A stretch of DNA of 64,000 bases from the IMG/VR virus record IMGVR_UViG_3300043119_000443, one strand, 5' to 3'. The notes below the pieces were generated by a model. It saw only the letters and a program-made list of their open reading frames with translations. It did not search any database and was not told where the DNA came from. This stretch comes from a virus. Taxonomy: Duplodnaviria > Heunggongvirae > Uroviricota > Caudoviricetes. The translations under genes and the position numbers were made by a program. Of the stretch, positions 1-34,549 are shown one piece after another (the first letter of the stretch is position 1; each line of letters begins with the position of its first letter).

Positions 1-91
1 TCCCGCCCCGCCTACCATTACCGCATTCGGTAATAACATGGCCCGGATACCCGCATCCGTACCCGATTTTACCCAAAGCGTAAAATAGTCC

Positions 92-120
92 TTGACGATG
101 TGGCACGACCCCTGCATAAC
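92..120 (+). promoter_or_regulatory. possible sigma70-like promoter (TTGACG-N17-CATAAC) ahead of first early gene
   Basis: TTGACG at 92-97, 17-nt spacer, CATAAC at 115-120, about 35 nt upstream of ATG 156; -10 is weak. Confidence 0.2.
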
Positions 121-155
121 CGGGTCAGGACCAAACAACAGCAAGGACTGACCAA

Positions 156-455
156 ATGAAGATCGAAGGTTTCGAGAAGCCCAAGCGCTCCGGTATCGGG
201 CGCTCCGGCTCGGACATCTATGGCCTGCGTGCAATGGCCGTGGGTGAGAGCGCTTTCCATGGCGCGCGTGTCACCGATGACATCAGCGGCGAGATGGAGA
301 CGGTGATCAAGACGGCGCGTCGCCTGTCCAACGCGATCGCGTTCGTGCAGAAGTCGAAGGGCATGAAGTTCTCGACGAGCACGGTCCGCGGCGACACCAC
401 ATATGGCAACTGGACTGCGCCGTCGGATGGCGTGGTCGTGACGCGGACGGCCTGA
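156..455 (+). CDS. hypothetical protein (99 aa)
   Basis: ORF with ATG start, abuts next gene; no recognisable motif. Confidence 0.4.
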   Translation: MKIEGFEKPKRSGIGRSGSDIYGLRAMAVGESAFHGARVTDDISGEMETVIKTARRLSNAIAFVQKSKGMKFSTSTVRGDTTYGNWTAPSDGVVVTRTA

Positions 456-457
456 TC

Positions 458-1006
458 ATGGTCAAGGTCGTACACGTCAAGAAGTCGCGCGGCCCCGTTC
501 CGCAACTCGATCTCCCCGCCGGAAGCTCCTACTACCACTGGAGCCTGATGTCTGGCGGGCGCGGCGTAAAGCGTTTCAGCAAGACGCCGCCGCGGCGATC
601 GCAGCTCACCAATTCCGAATTCAAGGCGGCGCTCTACGATATCGAGGACGCGCTGGAAGCCTTGTCGGACGCGGATGATCTGGACGGCATCATTGAAGAC
701 ATCCGTCAGCTCGGCTCCGAACAGGAAGAGAAGCACCAGAACCTCCCGGACAATCTCCAATACTCCGGCACGGGCGAGCTTCTTGAAGGCCGCGCTCAAG
801 CCTGCGAAGAGTGGGCGAGCGAGCTGGAGCAAGTCGAGAAGCCCGAAGAAGTCTCGGACAGCGATGTCGATGACTACATCTCGGACAACTACGAGGAAGA
901 CGAGGTCCAGCACGCGAACCGTGAAGAGATCATCGGCCTCTTGGAAGGTGAACGCTTCGACGAGTTCAAGGAAGCTGTCTCCAACTGCCAGTACGGCGGC
1001 GAGTGA
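458..1006 (+). CDS. highly acidic hypothetical protein (182 aa), candidate DNA-mimic/anti-restriction-like
   Basis: Asp/Glu-rich C-terminal half (SDSDVDDYISDNYEEDEVQ...), early-region position; function inferred only from composition. Confidence 0.45.
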   Translation: MVKVVHVKKSRGPVPQLDLPAGSSYYHWSLMSGGRGVKRFSKTPPRRSQLTNSEFKAALYDIEDALEALSDADDLDGIIEDIRQLGSEQEEKHQNLPDNLQYSGTGELLEGRAQACEEWASELEQVEKPEEVSDSDVDDYISDNYEEDEVQHANREEIIGLLEGERFDEFKEAVSNCQYGGE

Positions 1007-1185
1007 TGATACAGCTCACCATCGACACCCCGCGCTTCAAGTACGAAGTGCAGGTAAAGGAATGGCCGAATACGACCGAGTTCGGCGAACGCATGGTCCG
1101 CATCCAGTACAAGGTCGGCGACAACGTGGTGATCAAGTACCTGTCCACCGACGGGCTCGACATCGACATGCGGCGAGTTGCGTGA
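1003..1185 (+). CDS. small hypothetical protein (60 aa)
   Basis: ORF overlapping neighbours by 4 nt at both ends (ATGA / TGATG). Confidence 0.35.
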   Translation: MMIQLTIDTPRFKYEVQVKEWPNTTEFGERMVRIQYKVGDNVVIKYLSTDGLDIDMRRVA

Positions 1186-1577
1186 TGGCAGCATACCACT
1201 ACATGACGGAGGCACAGCGGCGCGAGATGTTGGCCGCTCGTGTCAAAGCAGCACGCGAGGCGATCGAGAACGGCATGAAGTTGTACGACTTCGCTGCCGA
1301 ACTCGGCGTCGCGCCCGGCGGGCTCCAGCGCTATTTCGAGCGCAACGGGCACAAGGCCATAGTGGAAGGGTTCAAGCACAACCCGAAGCACAACACGATC
1401 AAGGGCGAGGAAGCCGTCCGGCGGCTAACGATCATCATTGAGGAACAGGCCAAGGGGGATAAGTTCTTTTCTCGCTCCGCGAAACGCCTCGGCATGTCGC
1501 GTCAAGGGGTCAATGGTTGGCTCCGTCGCATCGCGCCCGATGGCGCGCACAACGCTCTTATGGATTTTGCAGAATGA
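1185..1577 (+). CDS. putative HTH DNA-binding protein (130 aa)
   Basis: In-frame tail of ORF 675..1577 starting at ATG 1185 (TGATG coupling to upstream stop); HTH-like segment SAKRLGMSRQGVNGWLRRI. Confidence 0.45.
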   Translation: MAAYHYMTEAQRREMLAARVKAAREAIENGMKLYDFAAELGVAPGGLQRYFERNGHKAIVEGFKHNPKHNTIKGEEAVRRLTIIIEEQAKGDKFFSRSAKRLGMSRQGVNGWLRRIAPDGAHNALMDFAE

Positions 1578-1765
1578 TCAGTCGAGAAGACATCCGCGCG
1601 TTCTTGGCCTCCGGCATGTACGGCGGTCCGCCGATCCACGAATCTCACCCTGACGCGATCTGCGTGGCGGTGAACCCTCATGACTACGAGTGCCCGGCGT
1701 GCAAGGCGCGTGGCACAGCACTTGCACTCCCTTGCTCATCAACTCAGCACAAGGAACCAAAATGA
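1574..1765 (+). CDS. small Cys-containing protein (63 aa)
   Basis: ATGA-coupled start at 1574; CPAC motif (DYECPACKARG). Confidence 0.3.
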   Translation: MISREDIRAFLASGMYGGPPIHESHPDAICVAVNPHDYECPACKARGTALALPCSSTQHKEPK

Positions 1766-2661
1766 CCTACGAAGAACAACAAAAAGAAGAACGTGCCGAA
1801 TCAATGAAGCTCGCCAAGACCATCGCCAAAGTCGTCTTTGGAGTGCTCGGTCTTCTCACTCTCACCGTCGCCGGATGCACATCCTTCTACACCGTCGGCG
1901 AAGGCGAACGCGCTGTCCACACTCGCACCGGCGCGCTCGTCGGCATCACCAAGCCCGGCCTGAACTTCAAGGTGCCCTTCATCGACGACGTTCGCATGAT
2001 GGACGTGCGCGAGCAACCGATCCAGTGGGCCAACACGGAAGACGGCGACAGTCGCATGAACTCCTACTCGCGCGACCAACAGCCCGCGGAGATCGCCATC
2101 AACGTGGCGTGGTCCATCCCCTCCGACGACGCGACGATCTCGGACATCTACCAGACCTACGGATCGCGCGAGCGCTTCCGCACAACGGTCATCGTCCCCA
2201 AGACGGTCGAGGCGGTCAAGAACGTGTTCGGCGGCTACGACGCGGTGACGGTCATCCAGCAACGGTCGAAGTTCAACGCGGATGTCCGCGTCGCTCTCGA
2301 CGCGCTGCTGAAGGGCTACCCCGTCATGATCAGCGCCGTGCAGGTTCAGGACATCTCGTTCTCTGACGCCTACGAGAACGCGGTCGAGGCTCGCATGATG
2401 GCACAGGTCGAAGTGCAGAAGCGCGAGCAACAGAAGCAGACCGCACAGATCGACGCCGACATGCTCGTCATCCGCGCCGAAGCTGACGCCAAGCAGACCC
2501 GCCTCCGCGGCGACGCTGAAGCGGCGGCGATCCGGGCTCGCTCGGAAGCTATCGCCTCGTCGCCCAAACTCGTCGAGCTGACGCTCGCTGAGAAGTGGGA
2601 CGGCAAACTGCCCACGACGATGGTGCCGGGCCAAGCTGTGCCCTTCATCAACGTCAAGTAG
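1762..2661 (+). CDS. SPFH/band-7 (prohibitin/HflK-like) membrane protein
   Basis: N-terminal TM helix (VVFGVLGLLTLTVAGC) followed by SPFH-type core (TRTGALVGITKPGLNFKVPFIDDVRMMDVREQ...), C-terminal coiled-coil (QKREQQKQTAQIDADMLVIRAEADAKQ). Confidence 0.75.
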   Translation: MTYEEQQKEERAESMKLAKTIAKVVFGVLGLLTLTVAGCTSFYTVGEGERAVHTRTGALVGITKPGLNFKVPFIDDVRMMDVREQPIQWANTEDGDSRMNSYSRDQQPAEIAINVAWSIPSDDATISDIYQTYGSRERFRTTVIVPKTVEAVKNVFGGYDAVTVIQQRSKFNADVRVALDALLKGYPVMISAVQVQDISFSDAYENAVEARMMAQVEVQKREQQKQTAQIDADMLVIRAEADAKQTRLRGDAEAAAIRARSEAIASSPKLVELTLAEKWDGKLPTTMVPGQAVPFINVK

Positions 2662-2703
2662 GTCGAACCTCCGTCGCGTTATAGCGGCGGTCAGTAGAGA
2701 GCG

Positions 2704-2740
2704 GAGGCCCGTCAGCAATGGCGGGCCTCTTGCCATTTAG
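2704..2740 (+). terminator. candidate rho-independent terminator after SPFH gene
   Basis: 8-bp GC stem GAGGCCCG / CGGGCCTC (2704-2711 / 2722-2729), 10-nt loop, then TTGCCATTT. Confidence 0.35.
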
Positions 2741-2755
2741 TAGGAGGAACATTTC

Positions 2756-3178
2756 ATGCCGACAGCATCACCTGAAGTTCGCAAACCGTGGCACGACAAG
2801 CGCAGGCTCGTGCATATCGCCAAGGAAGCCCGTGACGGCATTCCCAACTTCTTCGGTTGGGCGCTCGTGCCGAACGGCGACGGCGCGGCGATGGACTACC
2901 TGCTGAAGCGCGGCTACATCGATCACCGCTACACGTGGTATCGCCCCAAGGCCTCGCTCCTGATCGCGGAGCCGGAGAAGTGGACGCCTACGGAGAAGGA
3001 AACGTCGGCGCTGCGGTATCTCTCGGAAGAGTGGGACCAGAGCTACGATCTGCGCGGGCACCGCGCGATCCTCGCCGAAGAGCGCAAGCGGGTCATCGAC
3101 GCTATGCCGATGTCCCAGAGGGAAGTCGATAGCTGGCTTGTCCGGTACACGACCATGGTCCGGGTGTTCCTCCAGTGA
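2756..3178 (+). CDS. hypothetical protein (140 aa)
   Basis: Strong RBS AGGAGG at 2743-2748 then ATG 2756. Confidence 0.5.
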   Translation: MPTASPEVRKPWHDKRRLVHIAKEARDGIPNFFGWALVPNGDGAAMDYLLKRGYIDHRYTWYRPKASLLIAEPEKWTPTEKETSALRYLSEEWDQSYDLRGHRAILAEERKRVIDAMPMSQREVDSWLVRYTTMVRVFLQ

Positions 3179-3242
3179 TCCCACGTTGGGCTAAGGTTCT
3201 GTTTTGGGCGCTGATGGTAGGCGCGCTGATTATGGGTGCGTG

Positions 3243-3596
3243 ATGACTGTCTGGTATCGGGCCGTTGAGAAGAAACACTACGACTGGGTCAACATTTCCG
3301 GCGACGAGGAAAGCACTCCGTTGTTCCGCGAGGCGACGGTTGAATTGGTCGAGTACGAGGTGATCAAGGTCACGCCCCAAGGGGTGAAGATCGCGGACCC
3401 TCTGCACTGGCGCGGCTATCGCTTTGTGCTGAAGGACGCGCGCAAGCGCTTCGCCTGTTCGACCAAGCACGAGGCCATTGAAAGCTTCCGCGCCCGCAAA
3501 CTTCGGCAACTCTCCATCTTGCGTTCGCAGGCGCGTGTGGTAGAAAGTGCTATGCGATCGCTCGACAAGAAACCCGCGGGAGACTTATTCTCATGA
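3243..3596 (+). CDS. hypothetical protein (117 aa; alternative start 3204)
   Basis: ORF 3204..3596; internal ATG 3243 (MTVWYRAVEKK...) preferred, start uncertain. Confidence 0.4.
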   Translation: MTVWYRAVEKKHYDWVNISGDEESTPLFREATVELVEYEVIKVTPQGVKIADPLHWRGYRFVLKDARKRFACSTKHEAIESFRARKLRQLSILRSQARVVESAMRSLDKKPAGDLFS

Positions 3597-3697
3597 AGAA
3601 AGACGACTACGTGCAGGAAGGCCTCGCCTTCATAGCCATAATGATTATGGCCGTCGCCATGCTCTTCGCCGGATTGTTCATCGGGCTTGCCGTATGA
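3593..3697 (+). CDS. small hydrophobic peptide (34 aa)
   Basis: MKKDDYVQEGLAFIAIMIMAVAMLFAGLFIGLAV; ATGA-coupled at both ends (3593 and 3694). Confidence 0.3.
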   Translation: MKKDDYVQEGLAFIAIMIMAVAMLFAGLFIGLAV

Positions 3698-4542
3698 TCA
3701 AGGCTCACAACTTCAACGTCGTTCGCCCGCTCCCCAAGCGCATTCGCATCGGCGTTCCGCCCGGCGTCGGCGACACCTATTGGGCTCTCTGCAAGCTTGA
3801 GAGCTTCAGGGAGAGGCACGGAATCGAGCACGTGACGTTGTGCGTCAAGAAGGCGGAACTGAAGCGTGCGCTCGCGTGGCCCTCTATGGTGGACTGCGTA
3901 GACGCTGCGGAAGAGTTCGAGTTCGGCACGAACCCCGGCATCCGCGAGACAGGCTTCTCCTGCCGCAAGCCCGGCGTCGATGTCGTGATGTGGCCCAACG
4001 CGGTGATAGATCGCGGCGAACATCTGCGCAACTGGATGCCGGAGTACGAGCTGAACCTCGATATCGAGATCAAGACCCCGCCGATCTGGTCCAAGTTTAT
4101 GAATCGTCACGTGATCTACGCCAGCTCCGAAGGCGTGAACCGCGAGTGGTTTCCGGACCGCGGCCCCGGCTTCTGGCGTCACCTGATCAACGAGATCGCG
4201 GACCAGACGGGCGAACGTCCGCTGCTGATCGGCGCTGGATGGGACAAGGATTTCTTCCGCGCGATCGAGCCGGTCGAGGCGGATAGCCTGATCAGCGAGA
4301 CGACGCTCCCGGAAGTCGCGGGCTTGATCAAACACGCGAAGTCGCTTACAGGAATGATCTCCGGCATGACGATCCTCGGGAACCATTTCCGCACACCCAC
4401 TGTCGCGATATACCCGGATCGCTTCATGCCGGGGTTCCTCACATCATGGATCAAACCCGACACGCCCTACGTGCCGCTGATGGCGTCGCTAGTTCCGGCG
4501 TCGAAAGTCGTGGCCCGCATCACAAAAGATTTGGCAGGATGA
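3694..4542 (+). CDS. glycosyltransferase family 9-like (heptosyltransferase-like) protein
   Basis: N-terminal IRIGVPPGVGDTYWALCKL resembles the GT9 GDxxxxxP motif; C-terminal MISGMTILGNHFRTPTVAIY resembles GT9 G-D-S-G-x-x-H-L-A...P...L-F-G block. Confidence 0.55.
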   Translation: MIKAHNFNVVRPLPKRIRIGVPPGVGDTYWALCKLESFRERHGIEHVTLCVKKAELKRALAWPSMVDCVDAAEEFEFGTNPGIRETGFSCRKPGVDVVMWPNAVIDRGEHLRNWMPEYELNLDIEIKTPPIWSKFMNRHVIYASSEGVNREWFPDRGPGFWRHLINEIADQTGERPLLIGAGWDKDFFRAIEPVEADSLISETTLPEVAGLIKHAKSLTGMISGMTILGNHFRTPTVAIYPDRFMPGFLTSWIKPDTPYVPLMASLVPASKVVARITKDLAG

Positions 4543-4709
4543 AGAAGTTCAAGTATAACGGCGTGCGGGAGCTTGACTTCGAACGAGCCGCAGGCGAGTT
4601 CGAAGTCGAAGAAAGCGAGATACCTCCGTCGTGCCAGCGGGAACGAAGTTACCGCTGGCAAGACGATCCACGCCGTTACGACCCTCCGAAGGAAAAGAGA
4701 CGCAGATGA
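4539..4709 (+). CDS. small hypothetical protein (56 aa)
   Basis: ATGA-coupled ORF MKKFKYNGVRELDFERAAGEFEVEESEIPP... Confidence 0.3.
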   Translation: MKKFKYNGVRELDFERAAGEFEVEESEIPPSCQRERSYRWQDDPRRYDPPKEKRRR

Positions 4710-5134
4710 AACTGGAAGTCGGCAAGGTCTACCTGATGAACAATGGCGAGCGAGTCGCCATCGAACAGGCTGTGACAGTCAGCGGTCAGACGTGGTTCTA
4801 TCGCGGCGTCACGCAGCGCGGCAAGTCCATCTCGTACGATGCGAACGGCGTCGGCCAATTCATCCTCGGCGAGCGCCCCCTGTTCAACATCAAAGAACTG
4901 GCCGGGATGGAGAAGGACGAGTTCAAGGCTTTCCACAAGGGATCGCTCTGGGTCACGCACGGCGGTCGCGTCTGGGAAGTGCTGACGGTCTATACGACTG
5001 TGCCGGACGATTTCCCGGTGATCGCGAATGAGGTGTTGCCAGATGGCACGCTTCATGCAAATATCAAACGGTTCAACTGGGACGGCAAACCGCACGACGG
5101 ATCGTCCACTGTCTTGGTGAGGAATTGCACATGA
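4706..5134 (+). CDS. hypothetical protein (142 aa)
   Basis: ATG 4706 preceded by AAGGAAAAGAGA; ATGA-coupled. Confidence 0.5.
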   Translation: MKLEVGKVYLMNNGERVAIEQAVTVSGQTWFYRGVTQRGKSISYDANGVGQFILGERPLFNIKELAGMEKDEFKAFHKGSLWVTHGGRVWEVLTVYTTVPDDFPVIANEVLPDGTLHANIKRFNWDGKPHDGSSTVLVRNCT

Positions 5135-5259
5135 CGGACGGTATCATCAAAGTTATGGTGTTGATCACCATGTTCGCGTTTATGATATGGGCGACGTTGT
5201 CGTCCGTGTCGTGCGCGATCGGCGCTGGCGTGGAGCTGGTCGAGAAGGTCAGCACGTGA
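5131..5259 (+). CDS. small membrane peptide (42 aa)
   Basis: MTDGIIKVMVLITMFAFMIWATLSSVSCAIGAGVELVEKVST; ATGA overlap with upstream gene. Confidence 0.3.
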   Translation: MTDGIIKVMVLITMFAFMIWATLSSVSCAIGAGVELVEKVST

Positions 5260-5414
5260 TATTCCAGAAAGAAGACAGCACGCTTGTTCGGGTTCTCATC
5301 ATGACCCCGGCGCTGATAGTCACTCTGGTGATGATCTTACTACTTCTGCCCCCAGAGCGTACGGCGACGCGTCAAGATGAAGTTCAACAGCCGGTAAAGG
5401 CCGCGCCAAGATGA
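5256..5414 (+). CDS. small membrane peptide (52 aa, GTG start)
   Basis: GTGA overlap with upstream stop; hydrophobic stretch LIMTPALIVTLVMILLLLPP; ends in ATGA with next gene. Confidence 0.25.
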   Translation: MIFQKEDSTLVRVLIMTPALIVTLVMILLLLPPERTATRQDEVQQPVKAAPR

Positions 5415-5899
5415 CACGGTTCGAGCTTCGGGATGAAGTTCTGAAGGCGATCTTCTGGATAAGGGCGGTCCAGCTCAAATGCTATCCACGTCGGAATCAT
5501 CTGGTCGCCCCGCCTCTCCGCACGCTCAACCAGTTAGCGGAGTTGGGCATCGCGAAGGTGTTCCGTCCGAGATACACGCGCGCGGGCGAAGTGTGGTCCC
5601 TTACGCGACAGGGCCTCGATCTGATCAACGAGATCATGACCTATGAGGAAGAGAACCCGCGCTACAGCACTGAAGAAGGGCCTTCCGCTCTACTTCACCG
5701 GGGTAACTTGCTCACGTGGTCACATCGCACAGCGGTACACGAGATCGAAAACCTGCGTCGAATGCGACAGGGAAACGAAGAGCGCGCGGCCAAGAGGGCG
5801 GGCCGCACAGGATGCCATGAAACGCGCCTCCGGGCGCAACCGCGCCCCAAGGTGGCTATCTGCGTCGATGGTTGCGGAGATCGAAAGCGTATACGCTAA
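5411..5899 (+). CDS. putative winged-helix DNA-binding protein; 3' extent uncertain
   Basis: First ~85 aa protein-like (...RTLNQLAELGIAKVFRPRYTRAGEVWSLTRQGLDLINEI); no in-frame stop until 5899, downstream part is Arg-rich and overlaps the HNH gene out of frame. Confidence 0.4.
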   Translation: MTRFELRDEVLKAIFWIRAVQLKCYPRRNHLVAPPLRTLNQLAELGIAKVFRPRYTRAGEVWSLTRQGLDLINEIMTYEEENPRYSTEEGPSALLHRGNLLTWSHRTAVHEIENLRRMRQGNEERAAKRAGRTGCHETRLRAQPRPKVAICVDGCGDRKRIR

Positions 5900-6119
5900 T
5901 GCAGCTTACCTCACCAGAGAAACGGGCGAGCTTCATCGCGTCGATCATATCATCCCTCTTAATGGGGTGGACTGTTCGGGCCTGCATGTCCCTTGGAACC
6001 TCCAGATACTTACTGAGGTTGACAACGTCGCCAAGAGCAATCGCTATCGCCAAGAAGACGCGCTGGCACGTCCATTGCAATGTCTGATGGACATTCCCTT
6101 TCCGGAGCACGGCCCATGA
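5643..6119 (+). CDS. HNH endonuclease with N-terminal zinc-finger-like module
   Basis: YFTGVTCSRGHIAQRYTRSKTCVECD N-terminus; HNH core GELHRVDHIIPLNGVDCSGLHVPWNLQILTEVDNVAKSNRY; in-frame TGA (5637-5639) immediately upstream fixes the start. Confidence 0.8.
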   Translation: MRKRTRATALKKGLPLYFTGVTCSRGHIAQRYTRSKTCVECDRETKSARPRGRAAQDAMKRASGRNRAPRWLSASMVAEIESVYANAAYLTRETGELHRVDHIIPLNGVDCSGLHVPWNLQILTEVDNVAKSNRYRQEDALARPLQCLMDIPFPEHGP

Positions 6120-6517
6120 AAGTCTATGTCCCCGCTGGCATGATCAAGTACGTCCACGTCTATGAGCCGCACGGCTACATCGACGACGGCAGGAAAGACT
6201 TCATGGTCTGCATCGACGCGGAGTACATGAAGGGCTTCTCGGAGCTGAACGATTATTTCGCCAAGACGCCCCACCTCGCGGGCAAGACCGTCGTGAAGAT
6301 CAGCTCGCGCAAGCGTCCCGAAGTGAAGGCGAAGGACATCGACTTGCTGATGTACGAGCTGGACTGTCGCGTCGCCCGCAACGTCGGCAAGGACGACCTG
6401 TTTCGCGAGAAGCCGGTTATCGTCGAGTTCGAGATGAAAGAGATCAGCCCCAACATGGCCGGGTACAAGGGCTTCTATCTCGCCCTCGTCAGCGTCGAGG
6501 TGTTCTTCAATGACTAA
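6116..6517 (+). CDS. hypothetical protein (133 aa)
   Basis: ATGA-coupled to HNH gene; no confident motif. Confidence 0.45.
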   Translation: MKVYVPAGMIKYVHVYEPHGYIDDGRKDFMVCIDAEYMKGFSELNDYFAKTPHLAGKTVVKISSRKRPEVKAKDIDLLMYELDCRVARNVGKDDLFREKPVIVEFEMKEISPNMAGYKGFYLALVSVEVFFND

Positions 6518-7436
6518 GCTTTTCATCCGCGCCATGGTAGGGATTGGCGACAATCTCTACGCGCGCCCGTTCATCAAGGACTTGGCGCTGCACCATCAGG
6601 TTTCGCTGATGACAGGCTTCCCGCAGTTGTTCGGGGACATCCGTGGCATCCGTCTCGTGCGCGCCCAGACATCGCTGCCCTATGTGAAGAAGAACATCCG
6701 CGACTGGGGTGTTGACAACGACTGGCGCGGCGCTCCGCGCGAGAAGCCTGATGACGAGCACCAAATGGAGCCCGTCTTCATGGCGTACGACCCGAACGAT
6801 CCGGCCAATGTCACAGAACAGATCGAACGGGCTTTCCCGATTCGGCACCTGTACCAATTCGATCTGCCGCCCCCGGACTTCCGCGGCATCAACTCGTACC
6901 TGACGACGCTGTTCCAGACACGCAAGAAGTACGTCGTCATTCGCCCTGTCGTGGTCCGTGAGGGCTTCGGAACGTCGGCGCGTAACTGTAAGGCCAAGTA
7001 CGTCCACGAGGCTGTAGAGACGTTGAAGTCACACGGTATCCTCACGATCAGCGTGGCCCGCATCGGCGACGGTGAGACGGGGGAGGCTCCGCTCCCAGAA
7101 TGCGACATCAGCTACATGGACGGGGTGCTCAGTTTCCCGGAGATGATCGAACTGGTCCGCCATTCGGCTGGCGTCGTATCTGGCCCCGGCTTCGCTATGC
7201 CTATGGCCGTGGCGGCGAAACGTCCGCTGCTGGCGATCTGGGGCGCGCGGGGAAGGCTCGACAACCCGGAGCGTATCTTCGACCGGCGCATGGACCTTTC
7301 GCAAGTCGTCAATTCCATACCAGATAATTTCTGTAGGCACTCGACAGGGGAGTGCGCTTGCGATAAGACCATTTCCCGCTTCGGCTCGGACCTGATGAAA
7401 TTCGTGAACAAGGTACACCATGCTCTCCCCGTCTGA
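6510..7436 (+). CDS. glycosyltransferase family 9-like protein (second copy, divergent)
   Basis: MVGIGDNLYARPFIKDL (GDxxxxxP-like) and VVSGPGFAMPMAVAAKRPLLAIWG (GT9 C-terminal block-like). Confidence 0.55.
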   Translation: MTKLFIRAMVGIGDNLYARPFIKDLALHHQVSLMTGFPQLFGDIRGIRLVRAQTSLPYVKKNIRDWGVDNDWRGAPREKPDDEHQMEPVFMAYDPNDPANVTEQIERAFPIRHLYQFDLPPPDFRGINSYLTTLFQTRKKYVVIRPVVVREGFGTSARNCKAKYVHEAVETLKSHGILTISVARIGDGETGEAPLPECDISYMDGVLSFPEMIELVRHSAGVVSGPGFAMPMAVAAKRPLLAIWGARGRLDNPERIFDRRMDLSQVVNSIPDNFCRHSTGECACDKTISRFGSDLMKFVNKVHHALPV

Positions 7437-8091
7437 TCTTCTCTCTTGGAATGCTGAACTCGGCTACGGCTTCTACCCGGTTGATCAAGCCGAGTGGCCC
7501 TACGATGAGGCCTACCGCGCCAAGTACGCGGAGATGGCGGTGACGCCGATGGCGAAGCGCCTGAACATGCATCGCGTGTCGCTGGCCCTGTACGCCGCGA
7601 GCCGGGTCAGCCAAGAGGGCAAGGCGTCCACATACATCGACATCGGCCCCGGCGACGGCGCGTTCATGCGTGAGCTGTCGCGCGGTCTTCCCAAGGGTGA
7701 GGACATGGTGTTCGGGTTCGATGTCAATCCGGCCATGGTCGAACGCCTGAAGGAACAATTCCGATTTGCCAAGCCGTCCATGCCAGACATCGGCGGTAAG
7801 CCGTGGCGGTGGAGCGTGATGACGTTCTGGGACAGCTTCGAACACATCCATCGTCCGGACAAGACGATCGTGGACGCGGACAGCGTCGTGATGTCGATCC
7901 CGATCTTCCGCAACAAGGCGCACGTGCTGGAGAGCAAGCACTTCCGGCCCGACGAACACGTCTGGTACTTCACGCACGAAGGCATCGTTGCCTTCATGCA
8001 GAAGTGCGGGTTCCGCCTCATGGTGTGGGACCAAGTCGAGACAACCATCGGGCGCGAGGATATCCGCTCCTACGTCTTCTTGCGCGACTAA
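7420..8091 (+). CDS. class I SAM-dependent methyltransferase
   Basis: Motif I YIDIGPGDGAFMREL; downstream GFDVNPAMVERL and FWDSFEHIH typical of Rossmann-fold methyltransferases. Confidence 0.7.
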   Translation: MLSPSDLLSWNAELGYGFYPVDQAEWPYDEAYRAKYAEMAVTPMAKRLNMHRVSLALYAASRVSQEGKASTYIDIGPGDGAFMRELSRGLPKGEDMVFGFDVNPAMVERLKEQFRFAKPSMPDIGGKPWRWSVMTFWDSFEHIHRPDKTIVDADSVVMSIPIFRNKAHVLESKHFRPDEHVWYFTHEGIVAFMQKCGFRLMVWDQVETTIGREDIRSYVFLRD

Positions 8092-8170
8092 TCGTTAGGA
8101 AAGATTAAAGACGATGTTGACACCCATGATACTGTCTGGCACCTTCATCCCATGCAAATGGGAGGATAAA

Positions 8171-8380
8171 ATGAAGAAGCTCGAACTCAGCGATATCAAG
8201 CCCGGCACGTGGCTGGTCAACGGCGACGCCACTCCGCGGTATCGGCTGATCTGTTCGTGTGGCGAGCCCCGCAAGCTGTCGGCTGTTTCGGACACGGGGT
8301 ACATGATGTACGGCCCGACTTCGGCGGATGACCTGTTCGACTTCTATGCCAACGACGGCTGGCGCGTGGTTGAGCGCTGA
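8171..8380 (+). CDS. hypothetical protein (69 aa)
   Basis: Strong RBS GGGAGG at 8158-8163 before ATG 8171; longer ORF from 8114 lacks an RBS. Confidence 0.45.
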   Translation: MKKLELSDIKPGTWLVNGDATPRYRLICSCGEPRKLSAVSDTGYMMYGPTSADDLFDFYANDGWRVVER

Positions 8381-8694
8381 TGCTGTTCTCATTCCCCAAG
8401 CTAACGGATGACAAGGCGCGGCGCACGAAAGCCACGTGGATCATCGTCTTCCATGGGTACGATGAATCTTCGTACACGAAGAAATTCGAGATCATCATCG
8501 GCTGGTGCGCCGACCTGATGCATCCGCGTCTGGACAAGGGCAGGCTGATCCCCGCGCTGCTCGCATTGCAATGGCGGTGGGCGACGTACGAGGCTGGTTG
8601 GCCTCACGCCAAGACCTACTTCCACTGGCGCTCCGACTGGAAGGAAATCTTCCGTCGCATCAACGCCCGTCGTCTGGCCGCGGCTGACGCATGA
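8380..8694 (+). CDS. hypothetical protein (104 aa)
   Basis: TGATG coupling to upstream gene. Confidence 0.45.
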   Translation: MLFSFPKLTDDKARRTKATWIIVFHGYDESSYTKKFEIIIGWCADLMHPRLDKGRLIPALLALQWRWATYEAGWPHAKTYFHWRSDWKEIFRRINARRLAAADA

Positions 8695-8840
8695 AGTACG
8701 TCGCGCAAGTCGTGCTCTACATCTCGTTGATCGTGCTCGTCTGGATTTCGATCGGCGCGATCAAGAAGACATCCAACCTTCTCGACACCTTCGACAGCTT
8801 CGCGATCATTTCCGAAGCGATGGAAAAGGCGATCCGATAA
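8691..8840 (+). CDS. small membrane peptide (49 aa)
   Basis: MKYVAQVVLYISLIVLVWISIGAIKK...; ATGA / TAATG coupled. Confidence 0.35.
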   Translation: MKYVAQVVLYISLIVLVWISIGAIKKTSNLLDTFDSFAIISEAMEKAIR

Positions 8841-9205
8841 TGTATAGTGGATACCTGATCGGCGGTCCGTGCCACGGCAGTCGCATCTCTGCCAACCGCC
8901 CGCACTACACTGTCGCCAATGCGAGGCTGGCCCCTATTCCGCTTTGCGCGGAAGACGCGGCCAGCGCTTCCATCCGCACCGAGGACATCAAACATTACAC
9001 GTACGTCCACTCCGAAGAATATACGGAATGGGGCAACGCGGTAGCGGTGTTCATTTTGGATCGCATGGGCGCGCTGCCGCGGTTCGAGCGCGAGAAGTTC
9101 ATCCGTGCCGCGCTGACCGGCGATGGCAAGGTTCGTGCAGTGACGAAAGCAAATCAAAAGATCATCTGGCCGGAGTGCCCGGATGACTGGTGGGAAAACT
9201 TCTGA
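8840..9205 (+). CDS. hypothetical protein (121 aa)
   Basis: Coupled ORF. Confidence 0.45.
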   Translation: MYSGYLIGGPCHGSRISANRPHYTVANARLAPIPLCAEDAASASIRTEDIKHYTYVHSEEYTEWGNAVAVFILDRMGALPRFEREKFIRAALTGDGKVRAVTKANQKIIWPECPDDWWENF

Positions 9206-10110
9206 TGGCTAACATAGGGACATTGATAAAAGCGTCATCGATAGGGAAAAAGCTCGCGCCCGATTTCAAGTACCTGAAGTTCGATGACACAGCAATTGGT
9301 ATGCTGAAGAACATCGGCAACTTGCCTATCGGCGCATGGGGACCACTCGCGTTACGTCCATTCGATGACTATGTCATAGAACTGCTGGACAAAACTTCTG
9401 ATGTCACTATCGCGGCGGTGGGGTACGGGCCTTACACCTTTTTCTATTTTGACATAAAAAACTCCGCGGGCAAAATCATCGGAGTGAGGTCGGCGGGGTT
9501 TCGGTTCTTCTGGTGTGACCCAGAGGACGATTACGAAACCCAACAGATTCTAGCTGAAGAACTCGCTGTCATGAAGAAAGCGGGGATTGACTGGGAACAG
9601 ATTCAGCGCGAAGCGTGGGGCCTCAACAACAAAGACCAAAATTTTCCCATGATCATGGTCATCCCAGAAAGCGTGGACTTTGTTGCGCACTCAAAATCCG
9701 AACCCGGATATGCGCGTGACATGCTCGCGGCATTTGCGCTCCTGTCCATCGAACGTGAAGTGATAGAAATCCCAGCATCGTTCCGTTCGGGTCGCGCGTT
9801 TATCAATACCGACAGCGTACCCTCTTACGAGCCGGTCACGGTTTTCATTCGGCCCAACGCTCCCCGCGTCATAATCCAGAAAGCGGAAGATGCAGCGAAA
9901 CAAGAGCGCCTACTTCGTGAGCACGACGTTCGCTCGCATTGGCGTATTCTCAACAGGGGCACGCCTGCGGAACGACGCGTGCCTGTAAAATCACACAAGC
10001 GAGGTGACCCTGAATTGGGTCGCGTCGAAAAATCGTACGTGGTCGAACTGGACCCACTTGCCGAAGTGCGCGCGAGCACGGCAAAGAAACTTATCAAGGA
10101 AGACGCATGA
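9205..10110 (+). CDS. hypothetical protein, compositionally atypical (AT-richer) gene
   Basis: ATG 9205 overlaps upstream stop (TGATGG); ORF tool start is a GTG at 9190. GC visibly lower than flanks (~50% by eye). Confidence 0.5.
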   Translation: MANIGTLIKASSIGKKLAPDFKYLKFDDTAIGMLKNIGNLPIGAWGPLALRPFDDYVIELLDKTSDVTIAAVGYGPYTFFYFDIKNSAGKIIGVRSAGFRFFWCDPEDDYETQQILAEELAVMKKAGIDWEQIQREAWGLNNKDQNFPMIMVIPESVDFVAHSKSEPGYARDMLAAFALLSIEREVIEIPASFRSGRAFINTDSVPSYEPVTVFIRPNAPRVIIQKAEDAAKQERLLREHDVRSHWRILNRGTPAERRVPVKSHKRGDPELGRVEKSYVVELDPLAEVRASTAKKLIKEDA

Positions 10111-10955
10111 CCATCTCAGCAAAAGTAATTCTCTGTTCGCAGCTCAAAGAGCCGAATGGAGCCCCGCCCATCTGGACGCTCCAGCTCCGCTACCCACGGT
10201 TGATCCACGCGGAGTTCATGACGCACCGCGTCTTCTCGCGCAACGCGTCATCGTCGCGCGCGATCCCGGTCAAGAAGATGATCGAGGACATCCGCCTTGA
10301 CCCGGCGATGCTCGTACACTGGGGCCGCAACCAACCGGGTATGCAGGCTGATGTCGAGCTGTCGCCCGAAGAGATGAAGCTGGCGAAGCTCGAATGGCGC
10401 GCGTCCATGGAGAGCGTGATCGGGCATGTCGAGAAGCTGATTGCGCTTGGCCTTCACAAGCAGGCGGCGAACCGCCTGCTCGAACCGTACAGCCACATCA
10501 ATGTGATCGTGACGGCGACGGAGTGGGACAACTTCTTCCAGCTCCGCGATCACCGCGAGGCACAGCCGGAGATCAGGGCGCTCGCGGTGAAGATGCGCGA
10601 GGCGATGACCGACGTGTACTGGGACGAAAAGATCAATCTGCTTGAGCCCGGCCAATGGCACCTGCCCTACGTGCGCGCGAGCGAGTACGAGTACAGCGAC
10701 GTGATCAAGCAGAAGATCAGCGCCGCCCGCTGCGCCCGCGTGAGTTATATGACCCACGAGGGCAAGCCCAGCACAGTGGACGAGGACGTGGCGCTGTATG
10801 ACAAGCTGATCGTCATGAAGCCCGCCCACGCCTCTCCTATCGAGCATCAGGCCATGGCCCATGGCTTGAACAGCCTCGGAAAGTATGGCAGGTATGCGAA
10901 CTTCGTCGGTTGGCAATCGCTGCGCAACCAGATGGAACAACGAGGTGAACTGTGA
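10107..10955 (+). CDS. thyX: flavin-dependent thymidylate synthase ThyX
   Basis: ThyX signature RHRxxSxxxxSxR present as HAEFMTHRVFSRNASSSRAIP. Confidence 0.85.
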   Translation: MTISAKVILCSQLKEPNGAPPIWTLQLRYPRLIHAEFMTHRVFSRNASSSRAIPVKKMIEDIRLDPAMLVHWGRNQPGMQADVELSPEEMKLAKLEWRASMESVIGHVEKLIALGLHKQAANRLLEPYSHINVIVTATEWDNFFQLRDHREAQPEIRALAVKMREAMTDVYWDEKINLLEPGQWHLPYVRASEYEYSDVIKQKISAARCARVSYMTHEGKPSTVDEDVALYDKLIVMKPAHASPIEHQAMAHGLNSLGKYGRYANFVGWQSLRNQMEQRGEL

Positions 10956-11440
10956 AACACTTGGACGCGAAACGCTCGATGCCTTCAGCGATGATGCGGC
11001 GTTTCCGCAAGCCCAAGTCCAAGGACACGCACGTCGCGATCGCGATCAGCGCGGACCGGACCAACATCATCCTGAAGGTGGACAGCAACGTCCTGAAGGG
11101 CCGCGGCTCCGTCCAGCGCTTCAGCTTGAAGAAGCTTGGCGGCGAGGCGGCGATCAAGCGTGTGCTCATGATCTCGTCGGCGATGCTGGCCCAGAGGCAG
11201 AACGAACTCTGGAAGGACAACCACGATATCAAGGAAGTCCAGCTCAAGGCGATCGAATCGTGGAACGCCATCCTGAAAGACAACAAGCTCATCCACGGCT
11301 TCGGCACGCTCACGCCCTACTCGGCGTACTCGCCCGGCAACGAGGACAAGCCCGCTGATCGCGTCTCGCGCGCGTCGGCTGATGATCCACTTACCCGTGA
11401 TCTATTGAGGGGCAAGGGTAGCGACTGGGGTCTGGACTAG
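10952..11440 (+). CDS. hypothetical protein (162 aa, GTG start)
   Basis: GTGA overlap with thyX stop. Confidence 0.4.
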   Translation: MKHLDAKRSMPSAMMRRFRKPKSKDTHVAIAISADRTNIILKVDSNVLKGRGSVQRFSLKKLGGEAAIKRVLMISSAMLAQRQNELWKDNHDIKEVQLKAIESWNAILKDNKLIHGFGTLTPYSAYSPGNEDKPADRVSRASADDPLTRDLLRGKGSDWGLD

Positions 11441-11446
11441 ACAGGC

Positions 11447-11455
11447 GTTAACCAT
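11447..11455 (+). promoter_or_regulatory. GTTAACCAT motif (CtrA half-site-like) upstream of packaging genes
   Basis: Exact TTAACCAT 11448-11455, 22 nt upstream of TerS-candidate ATG 11477. Confidence 0.35.
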
Positions 11456-11476
11456 TGTGCCATCTTGCATGGCGCA

Positions 11477-12103
11477 ATGATGACCATGCCTGATCTCCCC
11501 GTCCCTGAACACCTGAAGTTCACGATGGACAAACTGCCCAAGCTACTCCTAGCTCTGGGTGAAGAGCCCGTGGAGATTCGAGCGTGCAAGAAGGCGAGCA
11601 TCCATCCGGTCGCGCTGGCGTTCGCCCGCAAGGCCGACCCCCAGCTCAACGAGATGATTGAATTCGCGATACAGATTGGCTTCTCTGTAGTCGAAGAGCG
11701 TATCTACGCCCGGAGCATGGGTGAGAACCGCACGCCGAAGTATTTCGAGGGCAAGCCCCTGACCTACATCGATCTGGAGACGGGCGACACGCGGTACGTC
11801 TACGAGGAAAGCCAGAGCGATTCGCTGCTGAAGAAGTTCGCGGAGCGTATCCGGCCCGACCTGTACGGCGACCAAATCCAAGTCAAGGTGGACAACCGCA
11901 CGACCCTCTATCTGCCGGAGGAAGTCATGGCTGACCAATTCGAGAAGCTTCTCGCCGCACAGGCGGACAAGACCCGGCTTATCCAGTCGGAAGGCCTGCA
12001 AGGCATGATGGACCGAATTGACGCCGCTGGTCGCACTCCCCCTATTGACGCGGAGTTCCACGAGGTCCATGAAGAGGATGACGATCTCGCGGGGCTGACC
12101 TAA
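11477..12103 (+). CDS. putative terminase small subunit
   Basis: Immediately upstream of and TAATG-coupled to the large terminase; ORF tool start TTG 11465, first ATG 11477; call is by position only. Confidence 0.45.
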   Translation: MMTMPDLPVPEHLKFTMDKLPKLLLALGEEPVEIRACKKASIHPVALAFARKADPQLNEMIEFAIQIGFSVVEERIYARSMGENRTPKYFEGKPLTYIDLETGDTRYVYEESQSDSLLKKFAERIRPDLYGDQIQVKVDNRTTLYLPEEVMADQFEKLLAAQADKTRLIQSEGLQGMMDRIDAAGRTPPIDAEFHEVHEEDDDLAGLT

Positions 12104-13536
12104 TGGTGACCATGGTTGCTGATGCTGTGATGCCCCAACCGGGCTCACAAACGCTGTTCCTCCAGTCCAGCAAGATCAAGGAAGTCCTGTTCGAAGGCGA
12201 GCGCGGCCCCGGCAAGACGTGGTCCATGCTGTTCGCATTCGCCCAGCACACCGGCAAGGGATACGGCTCACACTGGCGCGGCGTGATCTTTCGTCGCGAG
12301 AGCGGCGACCTCGACGACATCATCGAAAAGTCGAAGCGGGAATTCGGGCGGATTTACCCGGACGCGATCTACAACAAGACCGAGAAGACGTGGGTCTGGC
12401 CGGGCGGCGAGATGCTGACCTTCGCACACTTCTTCGACGAGAACGATTACTGGTCGTGGCACGGTCAGGAATTGCCCTTCATCGGATGGGAAGAGTTGAC
12501 GACGTGGCCCTCGAACAAGGGCTATCTCAGCATGTTCTCGTGCAACCGTTCCGCCGGTCCGATTAACATGCCGCGCATCATTCGATCGACCACGAACCCG
12601 TACGGCGTCGGCAAGAACTGGGTCAAGCGCCGGTTCAAGCTCCCAAGCCATCGGTACAAGGTCTGGCAGGAAGTCGAGGACGATGGGCTGATGTCCCCGC
12701 CCCGTCTCGCCATTCCAGGATTTCTTATTGAAAACAAGATACTACTTCGCACTGACCCGCGTTATGTGCAGACGCTTAAGCAGTCTGCGGCAGGCAACCA
12801 AGAGAAGCTGAAAGCTTGGCTCTTTGGTGACTGGGACGCGGTGTCGGGCGGCATGTTCGACGACATCTGGAACGCTGGCGTCCATGTCGTCAAGCCCTTC
12901 TATATCCCGAACACATGGACGATCCGACGGGCGTATGACTGGGGCGGTGCCAAGCCCGGCTCGTACGGCCTATGGGCGGAAAGTAATGGTGACTGCGTCG
13001 AGGTTGGGCCGGGCAAGTATCACGGCCTCGTGCCCGGCGATAGCTTCCGTATCGGCGAATGGTACTCGACTAGCGGCCAAGAGGATGAGGGCCTGAACCT
13101 CACGCCTCTGGAGATCGCCAAATGCATGGTCGAGTGCGAGGAACGGGCGGGCGTCCGCGGTCGCGTCACGGCTGGCCCGGCTGACGTGAACATATTCGAC
13201 AAGAGCCACGGGCGATCGATTTACGATACGCTCCGGGCCGACCCGTTCCATCTCCGATTCGACATGGCGGACAAGGGTCCGAACAGCCGGAAGATGGGCT
13301 GGCAAGTCGCGCGCGAGCGTTTGCTGAACTCCATTCCGGGTGAATTCGGAACACGTGAGCGCCCCGGATTGTTCATCTTTAGCACATGCACTCACTTCAT
13401 TGATTTGGTGCCTACGCTGCCGCGAGACTTGAAAGACCCAGATGATGTTGATACAAAGAGCGAGGATCACATCGGCGACGAACTCCGTTACTACCTGCGG
13501 AGGGCTTCACGTCGCGCCGGACGACAGCGAGGATAA
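12103..13536 (+). CDS. terL: terminase large subunit
   Basis: Walker A GERGPGKT near N-terminus, 477 aa, followed by portal gene. Confidence 0.9.
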   Translation: MVTMVADAVMPQPGSQTLFLQSSKIKEVLFEGERGPGKTWSMLFAFAQHTGKGYGSHWRGVIFRRESGDLDDIIEKSKREFGRIYPDAIYNKTEKTWVWPGGEMLTFAHFFDENDYWSWHGQELPFIGWEELTTWPSNKGYLSMFSCNRSAGPINMPRIIRSTTNPYGVGKNWVKRRFKLPSHRYKVWQEVEDDGLMSPPRLAIPGFLIENKILLRTDPRYVQTLKQSAAGNQEKLKAWLFGDWDAVSGGMFDDIWNAGVHVVKPFYIPNTWTIRRAYDWGGAKPGSYGLWAESNGDCVEVGPGKYHGLVPGDSFRIGEWYSTSGQEDEGLNLTPLEIAKCMVECEERAGVRGRVTAGPADVNIFDKSHGRSIYDTLRADPFHLRFDMADKGPNSRKMGWQVARERLLNSIPGEFGTRERPGLFIFSTCTHFIDLVPTLPRDLKDPDDVDTKSEDHIGDELRYYLRRASRRAGRQRG

Positions 13537-13540
13537 CCAT
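13533..13540 (+). promoter_or_regulatory. ATAACCAT variant of TTAACCAT motif overlapping portal start codon
   Basis: ggATAACCATGg, ATG 13539 is the portal start. Confidence 0.25.
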
Positions 13541-15203
13541 GGTTTCGCAACGCGATAAAGAGAATCCGGCGACACCGGGACTGTTTCACACGGTCATGGA
13601 TGAGCGCTGGGACTTGGTCAATTCGCTGCTCGGCGGAACCGAGGCGATGCGTCTGGCCGGTACGCTGTACCTCCCGCAGCACAGCCGCGAGTACGATGAA
13701 GACTATCGCGAGCGCCTGAAGCGTTCGATCCTGATCAACTATTTCGACCTGACCGTGGCGACGCTGTCGGGTAAGCCGTTCACCGAAGCCCTGCAATTCG
13801 GCGACGACGTGCCGGAGCAAATCCGCGGCGTGCTCGTCAAGGACGAGTCCGAGAAGAGCGAGAGCGCGGAGAAGGACGTTCTCCTGACTGGCGGCTGGAT
13901 CGAGGACATCGATCTGGAAGGCAATCACATCGACCAATTCGCGGCGCGCGTCTTCCGGGATGGTGTCTCGAAAGGGTACACTCACATTCTGGTGGACACC
14001 CCGGCGAAAGACCCGTCCCGGACGTACACCCTCGCTGACGAGAAGGCAGAGGGCATCCGCCCCTACTTCGTTCACATCCATCCCGAAAACGTGATCGCGG
14101 CCAACTGCGTCCGCCAAGACGGCGTCGAGCTGCTGACCCACATCCGCTGGTACGAATCGACCACGAAGCGCGACGGCTTCGCGGAAGTCGAAGAGCTGGT
14201 CATCCGCGAGATGACGCTGAAGACTAACGCGGAAGGCAAGCGCTACGTCGAGACGGGCATGTACCGGAAGCTGGAAGGCAAGACCGGCGCGTCCGCTAAG
14301 TCGTGGCAGAAGGTCGATGCCAAGCCCACTGACCTTGATTACATTCCGATTTTCACGTTCTACGCGCGCCGTGACGGCTTCATGGTTTCGAAGCCCCCGC
14401 TGCTTGATCTGGCGCACATGAACGTGCTGCACTATCAGCGTTATTCGGACCACATGAACGCCCTGACCGTGGCTTCGTTCCCGATCTTGGCCGCGTCCGG
14501 CGTCGCCCCGGAGGACGCGGGAAGCGTCACGATCGGTCCGCGCAACGTGCTCACGCTGGAAGACCCGAACTCCAAATACTACTACGTCGAGCATCAGGGT
14601 CTTGCCCTTACGTCATCCAAGGAAAACCTCGCCGATCTGGAGAACCAGATGGGTCTGTACGGCGCGTCGCTCCTGCGCAAGCGCCCGGACCGCGAGACGG
14701 CCACGTCGCGTTCTATCGAAGAGAAGAACACGTCGTCGGACCTTCAGCGTATGGCGTTTGGCTTCAAGGACACTCTCGAAAACTGCTTCAAGGCGATGGC
14801 CCAGATGGGCGGCGTCGGCACCGAGGGCGGCACCATCATGATCCACACCGACTTCGCGTTCGAAGGCGGCGACGTGGTCGATCTGCAAACGCTGCAAGTC
14901 GCGTACGACAAGCGCGCGATCTCGCGCGTCGGCTTCATCAACGAGCTGAAGCGCCGCGGTATTCTCGCGGAAGACTTCCACTCGGATGAAGACTTGGCCC
15001 ACCTCGTCAAAGAAAAGCAGGAACAGATGGGCGCGTTCTACAATCCGAAGATGGCCGAGATCGGCGAACAGACCAAGGGTCAGCTCGCCGTCGCGGACAA
15101 GACCAAGGAAACGCAGCTCGAACTCGCGGACAAGAACGCGGAAGTCGCCAAGGAAGTCGCCAAGAATGGCCCGGTTAAGGCCGGGATCAAGAAGAAGGAA
15201 TAA
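13539..15203 (+). CDS. portal protein
   Basis: 554 aa, directly after terL and before scaffold/capsid; acidic with Lys-rich C-terminus. Confidence 0.75.
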   Translation: MVSQRDKENPATPGLFHTVMDERWDLVNSLLGGTEAMRLAGTLYLPQHSREYDEDYRERLKRSILINYFDLTVATLSGKPFTEALQFGDDVPEQIRGVLVKDESEKSESAEKDVLLTGGWIEDIDLEGNHIDQFAARVFRDGVSKGYTHILVDTPAKDPSRTYTLADEKAEGIRPYFVHIHPENVIAANCVRQDGVELLTHIRWYESTTKRDGFAEVEELVIREMTLKTNAEGKRYVETGMYRKLEGKTGASAKSWQKVDAKPTDLDYIPIFTFYARRDGFMVSKPPLLDLAHMNVLHYQRYSDHMNALTVASFPILAASGVAPEDAGSVTIGPRNVLTLEDPNSKYYYVEHQGLALTSSKENLADLENQMGLYGASLLRKRPDRETATSRSIEEKNTSSDLQRMAFGFKDTLENCFKAMAQMGGVGTEGGTIMIHTDFAFEGGDVVDLQTLQVAYDKRAISRVGFINELKRRGILAEDFHSDEDLAHLVKEKQEQMGAFYNPKMAEIGEQTKGQLAVADKTKETQLELADKNAEVAKEVAKNGPVKAGIKKKE

Positions 15204-15206
15204 GCC

Positions 15207-15734
15207 ATGACGCCGAACTTCGAACGCATCTTCGAACGTATGCTGGCTCATGAAGGCGGCTACGTCGATCACCCCAAAGACCCCGGCGGCGCGACCAATC
15301 TTGGCGTGACGCAACGGGTCTTCAACGAGTATCTGGCCGCGTCCGGCATCGCGCCGTACAGCGTCAAGATGATCACGCGCCAACAAGCCAAGGCGATCTT
15401 CAACGTCAAATACTGGATGGCCGTCAAGGGCGACAAGCTCCAGCACGGCTGGGATTATGCGGTCGTGGACTTCGCCTATAACTCCGGACCGGGGCGCGCG
15501 GTGCGCGTTCTTCAGACCGTTCTGGGACTGACCCCGGATGGCGTTGTTGGTCCGAAAACCGTTGCCGCGGTGTTCCACGCACCGAAGGAAAAACTGGCTG
15601 AATACAACGCGAAGCGCCTCGAATTCATGAAGTCGCTTGACCACTGGCCGACCTTCAAGAACGGCTGGACGGCGCGGGTTCAGGAAGTCGATGGGAAGTC
15701 CCAGATCGACTGGGAGCGCGGGCGCGGGGCTTGA
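15207..15734 (+). CDS. glycoside hydrolase family 108 lysozyme-like protein with C-terminal peptidoglycan-binding domain (putative endolysin / virion-associated lysin)
   Basis: N-terminal HEGGYVDHPKDPGGATNLGVT (GH108 catalytic block); C-terminal LGLTPDGVVGPKTVAAV PG_binding-like segment. Confidence 0.8.
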   Translation: MTPNFERIFERMLAHEGGYVDHPKDPGGATNLGVTQRVFNEYLAASGIAPYSVKMITRQQAKAIFNVKYWMAVKGDKLQHGWDYAVVDFAYNSGPGRAVRVLQTVLGLTPDGVVGPKTVAAVFHAPKEKLAEYNAKRLEFMKSLDHWPTFKNGWTARVQEVDGKSQIDWERGRGA

Positions 15735-15737
15735 CGC

Positions 15738-15746
15738 GTTAACCAT
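15738..15746 (+). promoter_or_regulatory. GTTAACCAT motif adjacent to TTGAC, upstream of scaffold gene
   Basis: cTTGACgcGTTAACCATgttctgCCATTTTGG directly after GH108 stop. Confidence 0.35.
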
Positions 15747-15841
15747 GTTCTGCCATTTTGGGGTCACTCGAAAGGCGTGAGGCCGGTCGGGGATCGTGGC
15801 GAGAGGCCACAGCACTACCCCAAAGCGCGAGGCAAAGGGAC

Positions 15842-16678: not shown

Positions 16679-16684
16679 GCTCTG

Positions 16685-16697
16685 CCATTAACCATGG
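16685..16697 (+). promoter_or_regulatory. CCATTAACCATGG motif + TTGACA-like element upstream of capsid gene
   Basis: gCCATTAACCATGGACTTGACagtccatcaatgg, 130 nt upstream of capsid ATG 16826. Confidence 0.35.
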
Positions 16698-16825
16698 ACT
16701 TGACAGTCCATCAATGGCTTGGTACAAGAAGGGCATCGGTGCTTAGTGGCATTGGTGCCCTTTCCATTTTGGAGGGCCACACCGGCACTCCACGCCCTTA
16801 AGGGCACAGACAAAGGAATACAAAC

Positions 16826-17797: not shown

Positions 17798-17820
17798 TCT
17801 TCGCCACAGACTTGACAAAT

Positions 17821-33865: not shown

Positions 33866-34549
33866 ATGCCGAAGCCTATGGATCGACCCGGACGCGCATT
33901 GTGGGCAGCTCAGCCGGACCCTGACTACGAGGGTAAGGCGGTCATATGCATCGGCGGCGGTCCGTCGCTCAAGGGCTACGATCTGGAGCCTTACCGGCAC
34001 ATTCCGACTATATCGGTAAACCAGTCGTTCGAGATCGCGCCGTGGGCCAAGTACCATCTGTTCGCTGACCGCCGCTGGTATATGTGGAACCAACAGGCCG
34101 TGGACGCGTCGCCGTCGATCAAGGTGACCGTCGGCAAATCGCTGTTCCCGGACGGGCTCGACTTCCGCCGCATGATCCGCGACAAGGACGCCGGGCTCTG
34201 CCACGAGCGGACGCATCTGGCGGGCATCGACAGCGGTTGCGTGGCCGTCAATCTGGCGTTCCACCTTGGCGCTTCCCGGATCATCCTGCTCGGATATGAC
34301 AGTGGGTACAGCGAGACGGGCGAAAGCCACTACCACAACAAGCACCAGACGCCGTCGAATCCGATGTACTATACCGACCGCTACGGTCCACGCCTGTCCG
34401 GCCTCTGCCAGAGGCTCAGGGACGTGGGCGTGCCCGTGGTGAGGGCAACACCGCCCGGACGGCCAGATATCCCCTACGTGGCTCTCCCAGAGGCTCTGAC
34501 GGCCCCTCTGCCCCCATGCGAAGGGCTCATCTCGACTTTTGTGCCTTAA
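33866..34549 (+). CDS. DUF115/Maf-like (MptE-like) protein, possible glycosyltransferase
   Basis: ICIGGGPSLKGYDL...ISVNQSFEIAPWAKYHLFADRRWY resembles the GxGPSL...VN...D signature of motility-accessory-factor type enzymes. Confidence 0.4.
   Translation: MPKPMDRPGRALWAAQPDPDYEGKAVICIGGGPSLKGYDLEPYRHIPTISVNQSFEIAPWAKYHLFADRRWYMWNQQAVDASPSIKVTVGKSLFPDGLDFRRMIRDKDAGLCHERTHLAGIDSGCVAVNLAFHLGASRIILLGYDSGYSETGESHYHNKHQTPSNPMYYTDRYGPRLSGLCQRLRDVGVPVVRATPPGRPDIPYVALPEALTAPLPPCEGLISTFVP

Follow-up and report, generated by a model that had tools for sequence, protein, structure and literature searches.

Two GT9-like glycosyltransferases, a methyltransferase and a GT42-like enzyme form a widespread phage module with a putative role in virion glycosylation

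Four scattered genes in the 64-kb stretch of phage DNA analysed here (the window, part of a contig of ~79 kb) are a dispersed copy of one widespread cassette of putative function. The comparative result that is new here is that four protein families, two GT9-like glycosyltransferases (A and B), a SAM-dependent methyltransferase (C) and a GT42/Maf-like enzyme (D), form one module. Hundreds of other phages carry the cassette, frequently with some of its genes fused, within the block of capsid and tail genes, so that its most likely product is a small methylated sugar chain on virion proteins. We give this reading, in which virion proteins are O-glycosylated in the cytoplasm late in infection and the glycan is methylated, a probability of about 0.5.

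Four enzyme genes are dispersed in the window

The four genes listed in an initial annotation of this DNA were all recovered on the + strand, and each encodes a soluble protein. They are given below together with the features needed to follow their layout.

ORF A, 3694..4542, + strand: 282 aa, GT9-like GT-B glycosyltransferase, family A
ORF B, 6510..7436, + strand: 308 aa, GT9-like GT-B glycosyltransferase, family B; phrog_6804; D3 orf12, PAJU2 gp11
ORF C, 7420..8091, + strand: 223 aa, class I SAM-dependent methyltransferase; phrog_6564; D3 orf13
ThyX, 10107-10955: thymidylate synthase, ~2 kb downstream of ORF C
Strong terminator, 17819-17852, + strand: 3' of the capsid gene
ORF D, 33866..34549, + strand: 227 aa, GT42/MptE(Maf)-like putative CMP-sugar transferase; phrog_4603; D3 orf7, PAJU2 gp10
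Fibre, 54159-58475: Thr/Ser/Gly-rich protein with tandem repeats, Pfam DUF5907

ORFs A, B and C lie directly upstream of the terminase, portal and major capsid genes and on the same strand. The start of ORF C overlaps the end of ORF B by 17 nt, and ORF D begins 11 nt past the last gene of the tail-fibre region. Within positions 1-18000, the only strong + strand terminator is the one beyond the capsid gene. Because no terminator separates ORFs A-C from the packaging and head genes and the cassettes of relatives lie in late operons, the assignment of these genes to an early operon is unsupported; it is a reading of the layout and not an observation. No integrase was found among the annotated ORFs of the window, which spans 64 kb of the ~79-kb contig.

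Fold and family assignment of the four enzymes

Structure prediction for A and B and profile comparison for D agreed with the proposal that all three are glycosyltransferase-like. Both A and B have a GT-B fold, and their nearest solved structures are GT9 enzymes, including the LPS heptosyltransferases WaaF and WaaC. At the level of Pfam, ORF A scored 12.8 bits (E=0.072) against PF01075 (GT9), under the gathering threshold of 22 bits, and ORF B gave no match; many A homologues carry the PF01075 flag, and two relatives exceeded the threshold, a 267-aa protein (locus L005, 28.4 bits) and a fusion protein (L022, 24.0 bits). Against the NCBIfam model of Aah/TibC (TIGR04414; cut-off 200 bits), A reached 13.6 bits and B had no match. 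JGI annotates ORF B as 'ADP-heptose:LPS heptosyltransferase'. In the A family, an N-terminal P-x-G-V-G-D motif is invariant, with D27 following the strand formed by residues 16-21 of the predicted structure, and in the B family D14 of a G-I-G-D motif, placed after strand 3-7 of the predicted structure, is present in all 89 of 89 sequences. D27 and D14 are candidate counterparts of the catalytic residues Asp13 of WaaC and Asp110 of TibC, as judged by motif and secondary-structure position rather than by residue-level superposition. In the profile alignment, Ile222 of A stands opposite Asp261 of WaaC, and the donor of A may therefore be other than heptose. B carries a C-terminal Cys3His site of four ligands (residues 275, 277, 282 and 284) just before the C-terminal helix; the ligands are CCHC in 86 of 90 family members and CHCC in a further 3, and ORF A is without a site of this type. 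The B family comprises 911 clusters at 50% identity, with 238 relatives in IMG/VR. A and B constitute two compact GT9-like subfamilies defined in this analysis, one of them with a conserved Cys3His site.

ORF D matched phrog_4603 (E=5e-28), and the profile of its family matched the sialyltransferases Cst-II (E=4e-9) and Cst-I (4e-5). PF01973 (MptE-like) was matched by 11 of 16 family members (best E=3e-8), with ORF D of the window on its own at 23.5 bits, below the cut-off of 34.6. These matches are in line with the putative Maf/DUF115-like glycosyltransferase suggested earlier. D and Cst-II have in common an N-terminal G-x-G-P-S motif and a central (N/S)-S-G ... G-(F/Y)-D motif; their alignment ends at about residue 174 of Cst-II, short of the catalytic His188, and a segment H-W-H-G-x-H, C-terminal to G-F-D, is conserved within the D family. 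As judged from sequence, D is a minimal GT42-like enzyme, which is defined in this analysis.

For ORF C, Pfam Methyltransf_23 was matched with 40.3 bits (E=3.4e-10; cut-off 27), and D74-x-G76-x-x-x-G80, corresponding to the class I SAM-binding core motif D/E-x-G-x-G-x-G, is invariant in its family. The family profile gave 111 methyltransferase matches in the PDB, among them 3cc8 (3e-13), the O-methyltransferase UbiG (5e-9) and the sugar 3-C-methyltransferases 5t64/TcaB9 (1e-7 to 3e-6). C is nearest to small-molecule and sugar methyltransferases, and inspection of the ORF C sequence revealed no DNA-methyltransferase motifs.

The four families form one module

That the two GT9-like enzymes, the methyltransferase and the Maf/DUF115-like enzyme belong to a single toolkit, as the initial annotation had proposed, is shown by a conserved order of the genes, by a locus with all four in a row and by numerous natural fusions. 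Of 29 B lineages, 27 have C as the next gene after B, and in 24 the distance between B and D is at most 2.5 kb. One viral contig (L035) carries D-A-B-C as contiguous, overlapping genes. Fusion proteins join the domains as D-B-B-A (P0064) and B-B-A (P0071), as D-B in at least eight proteins and also in L078, and as C-A in L018, L019, L021 and L022; C-B and A-B fusions exist as well. Other versions of the cassette carry a sulfotransferase, or an FkbM methyltransferase fused to a GT9-like domain, both of which are tailoring enzymes typical of glycans.

The module lies among structural genes of unrelated phages

Across unrelated phages, the usual neighbours of the module are the major capsid gene, which immediately precedes it, or else head-tail or tail genes, and this structural, late gene context recurs across non-homologous morphogenesis modules. 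At five loci (L005, L019, L100, L129 and L130), the gene immediately 5' of the cassette encodes the major capsid protein. The L007 cassette follows the portal gene and one for a collagen-like protein, that of L035 follows tail fibre J, and the L079 cassette is surrounded by tail genes. In D3 and PAJU2 it is inserted between the head-closure and tail-terminator genes, in lambdoid prophages between the lysis genes and terminase, and it is also present in Pseudomonas phage PMG1. Many carriers are temperate prophages, and their hosts range from Pseudomonas to cyanobacteria; strictly lytic carriers include the jumbo Klebsiella phage Eowyn and a T4-like cyanophage, in which the cassette lies 3' of the gp14 neck gene.

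B and D also occur in bacterial adhesin loci. In Lonsdalea, an invasin gene (IAT_beta and Big_1 repeats) is followed by B, D and genes for Ig-like proteins, with no phage genes nearby; a homologous but rearranged locus in Pantoea has kept B, C and D. The adhesin genes of the two loci are homologous, so that both loci may go back to one capture event.

The acceptor was sought among neighbouring virion proteins. The Thr/Ser/Gly-rich fibre of the window indeed exists (S+T 20.9%, Gly 13.6%, 198-nt tandem repeats, Pfam DUF5907 repeats), and its suggested role as the target of the toolkit was not supported, as no DUF5907 fibre lay near any other cassette in the flanks examined. Capsid proteins adjoining cassettes have no Ser/Thr-rich tail in common, and the long tail-tube type of the window phage is common in phages without the cassette.

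Proposed function and alternative explanations

If virion proteins are the substrate, the module would assemble and tailor a short glycan at a late stage of infection, inside the host cytoplasm, with A, B and D each adding one sugar. The donors would be host nucleotide sugars, since sugar-nucleotide synthesis genes were not found in the annotated regions of the phage; going by what related enzymes use, A and B would draw on ADP-heptose, and D on an ulosonic acid activated with CMP, for instance Kdo. C would then methylate the glycan or its activated precursor. The most likely acceptors would be Ser/Thr residues on the virion surface, in one protein or in several, with capsid proteins as first candidates in view of the position of the cassette in other phages. 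The virion protein acceptor, the donor sugars, the order of addition, the methylated atom and any benefit (shielding, stability or altered adsorption) are what we infer. Context favours this substrate, which the initial annotation had also put forward: head and tail operons harbour the cassettes, strictly lytic phages carry them, B and D lie in adhesin loci, glycan tailoring enzymes accompany them, C is without DNA-methyltransferase motifs and there are precedents that act on proteins. Against it stand the position of the window genes outside the structural block (A and B-C upstream of terminase), a cassette version after ribonucleotide reductase (L062), the acceptor search that singled out no protein and the possible single capture behind the Lonsdalea and Pantoea loci. 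In addition, the best-characterised members of both glycosyltransferase families act on LPS or LOS (WaaC/WaaF, Cst-I/II).

These LPS-directed relatives raise the fairly unlikely alternative that the module remodels the inner core of host LPS or LOS with heptose, a Kdo- or sialic-acid-like sugar and a methyl group, thereby blocking superinfection or keeping progeny off debris, or serving temperate carriers as a lysogenic-conversion moron. The structural proximity of A and B to WaaF and WaaC, the JGI name of B, the LOS-sialylating activity of Cst-I and Cst-II, the many temperate carriers and small intergenic gaps around D3 orf11-13 would fit such a role. In PAJU2, however, the cassette genes overlap late structural genes on both flanks, which leaves the cassette without a promoter or terminator of its own; jumbo and T4-like carriers are strictly lytic, the position right after the capsid gene recurs in unrelated phages, bacterial B and D are kept beside adhesin genes and not in waa clusters, and with late expression, newly made LPS would hardly have time to arrive at the cell surface. 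The adhesin loci, along with TibC/AAH and Maf as GT9- and MptE-type precedents on bacterial surface proteins, could instead point to glycosylation of host proteins (autotransporter or Ig-like adhesins, pilins, flagellin) that, in infected or lysogenic cells, changes how the host behaves or how available its receptors are. We consider this quite improbable: the conserved phage neighbours are capsid, connector and tail genes and not host-interaction genes, lytic phages carry the cassette, and the wide host range of the carriers makes one conserved host protein target unlikely.

Glycosylation and methylation of a hydroxymethylated base in phage DNA for restriction evasion appears highly improbable. 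ThyX, encoded near ORF C, would suit such a pathway, but belongs to a standard dTMP synthase family. C resembles small-molecule and sugar methyltransferases, and the cassette lies in morphogenesis and not in replication operons. Phage GT-B enzymes that place heptose or Kdo on 5hmC are known, but the known DNA glycosyltransferases are T4 beta-GT-like and not GT9, and they need a C5-methyltransferase/TET pair or a hydroxymethylase (bioRxiv 10.1101/2023.12.21.572611); neither was found in positions 1-12 kb of the window or in the examined annotated regions of D3 and PAJU2.

Glycosylation of virion proteins could also be cast more broadly, as a widespread O-glycosylation in phages of Gram-negative and cyanobacterial hosts. 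Capsids, and perhaps tails, would receive a short glycan, methylated and for some lineages also sulfated, made from host ADP-heptose and CMP-Kdo, the precursors of the LPS inner core; virions would thus display LPS-core-like sugars, and bacteria would occasionally have captured the enzymes for invasin-type adhesins. Taken as a whole, we regard this wider picture as unlikely. Literature searches on D3, PAJU2 and their relatives yielded no biochemical or mass-spectrometric data, and the presence of the module in long-studied culturable phages (Pseudomonas D3, PAJU2 and PMG1, Klebsiella Eowyn) makes the proposed virion glycosylation testable. Virion glycosylation of this kind would matter for the stability and adsorption of phages and, in phage therapy, for their recognition by antibodies and innate immunity. 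The A and B subfamilies and the minimal D could serve as glycoengineering tools, and our analysis links enzymes of the A/B/D type to enterobacterial invasin-type adhesin loci.

Comparison with known glycosylation systems

The nearest known systems include the bacterial autotransporter heptosyltransferases TibC and AAH. TibC heptosylates an adhesin and is a protein of 406 aa with an N-terminal beta-barrel (residues 1-97) and an iron finger of Cys339/342/358/370 (PMC4358343). In A and B, the loop that follows the first N-lobe strand contains a catalytic-type Asp, the C-lobe of B has a four-ligand site as a possible counterpart of the four-Cys iron finger of TibC, and B-family genes adjoin inverse autotransporter genes with Big_1 repeats in Lonsdalea and Pantoea as tibC adjoins tibA. 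In contrast to TibC, the models of A and B, at 282 and 308 aa, open with a Rossmann-like N-lobe and have no N-terminal beta-barrel, and the site of B is a compact C-x-C-x4-H-x-C knuckle with other spacing and ligands, which A lacks. Moreover, the B family is made up mostly of phage genes that have genes for a methyltransferase and a GT42-like enzyme as partners, and B of the window, like most phage B genes, is not beside an adhesin gene. From WaaC and WaaF (about 320-350 aa), A and B differ in their shorter length, in Pfam GT9 scores below cut-off (A) or absent (B), in the replacement of WaaC Asp261 by Ile222 in A and in their location outside waa clusters, with phage structural or adhesin genes as partners.

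Maf enzymes act on Ser/Thr by O-glycosylation, and CMP-Kdo can be their donor (bioRxiv 10.1101/2020.06.03.131540). D shares motifs and profile similarity with the group formed by Cst-I/II and the Maf/MptE-like flagellin nonulosonic-acid transferases, and differs from Maf proteins in being a single domain of ~180-230 aa, with none of the domains that adjoin it in Maf.

The expectation that either virion or DNA modification would be an undescribed phage function did not hold, because glycosylation of phage DNA with heptose and Kdo (bioRxiv 10.1101/2023.12.21.572611) and of virions have both been described. Capsid and tail-tube subunits of mycobacteriophages are glycosylated by phage-encoded glycosyltransferases (Freeman et al. 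2023, Cell Host Microbe, as cited in PMC12619734), the one published example of glycosylated phage virions that our literature searches turned up. The hosts of those phages are Actinobacteria, whereas the module described here is a putative glycosylation system in phages of Gram-negative bacteria and cyanobacteria. If it does glycosylate virions, virion surface glycosylation would not be peculiar to mycobacteriophages and would be common in Gram-negative phages.

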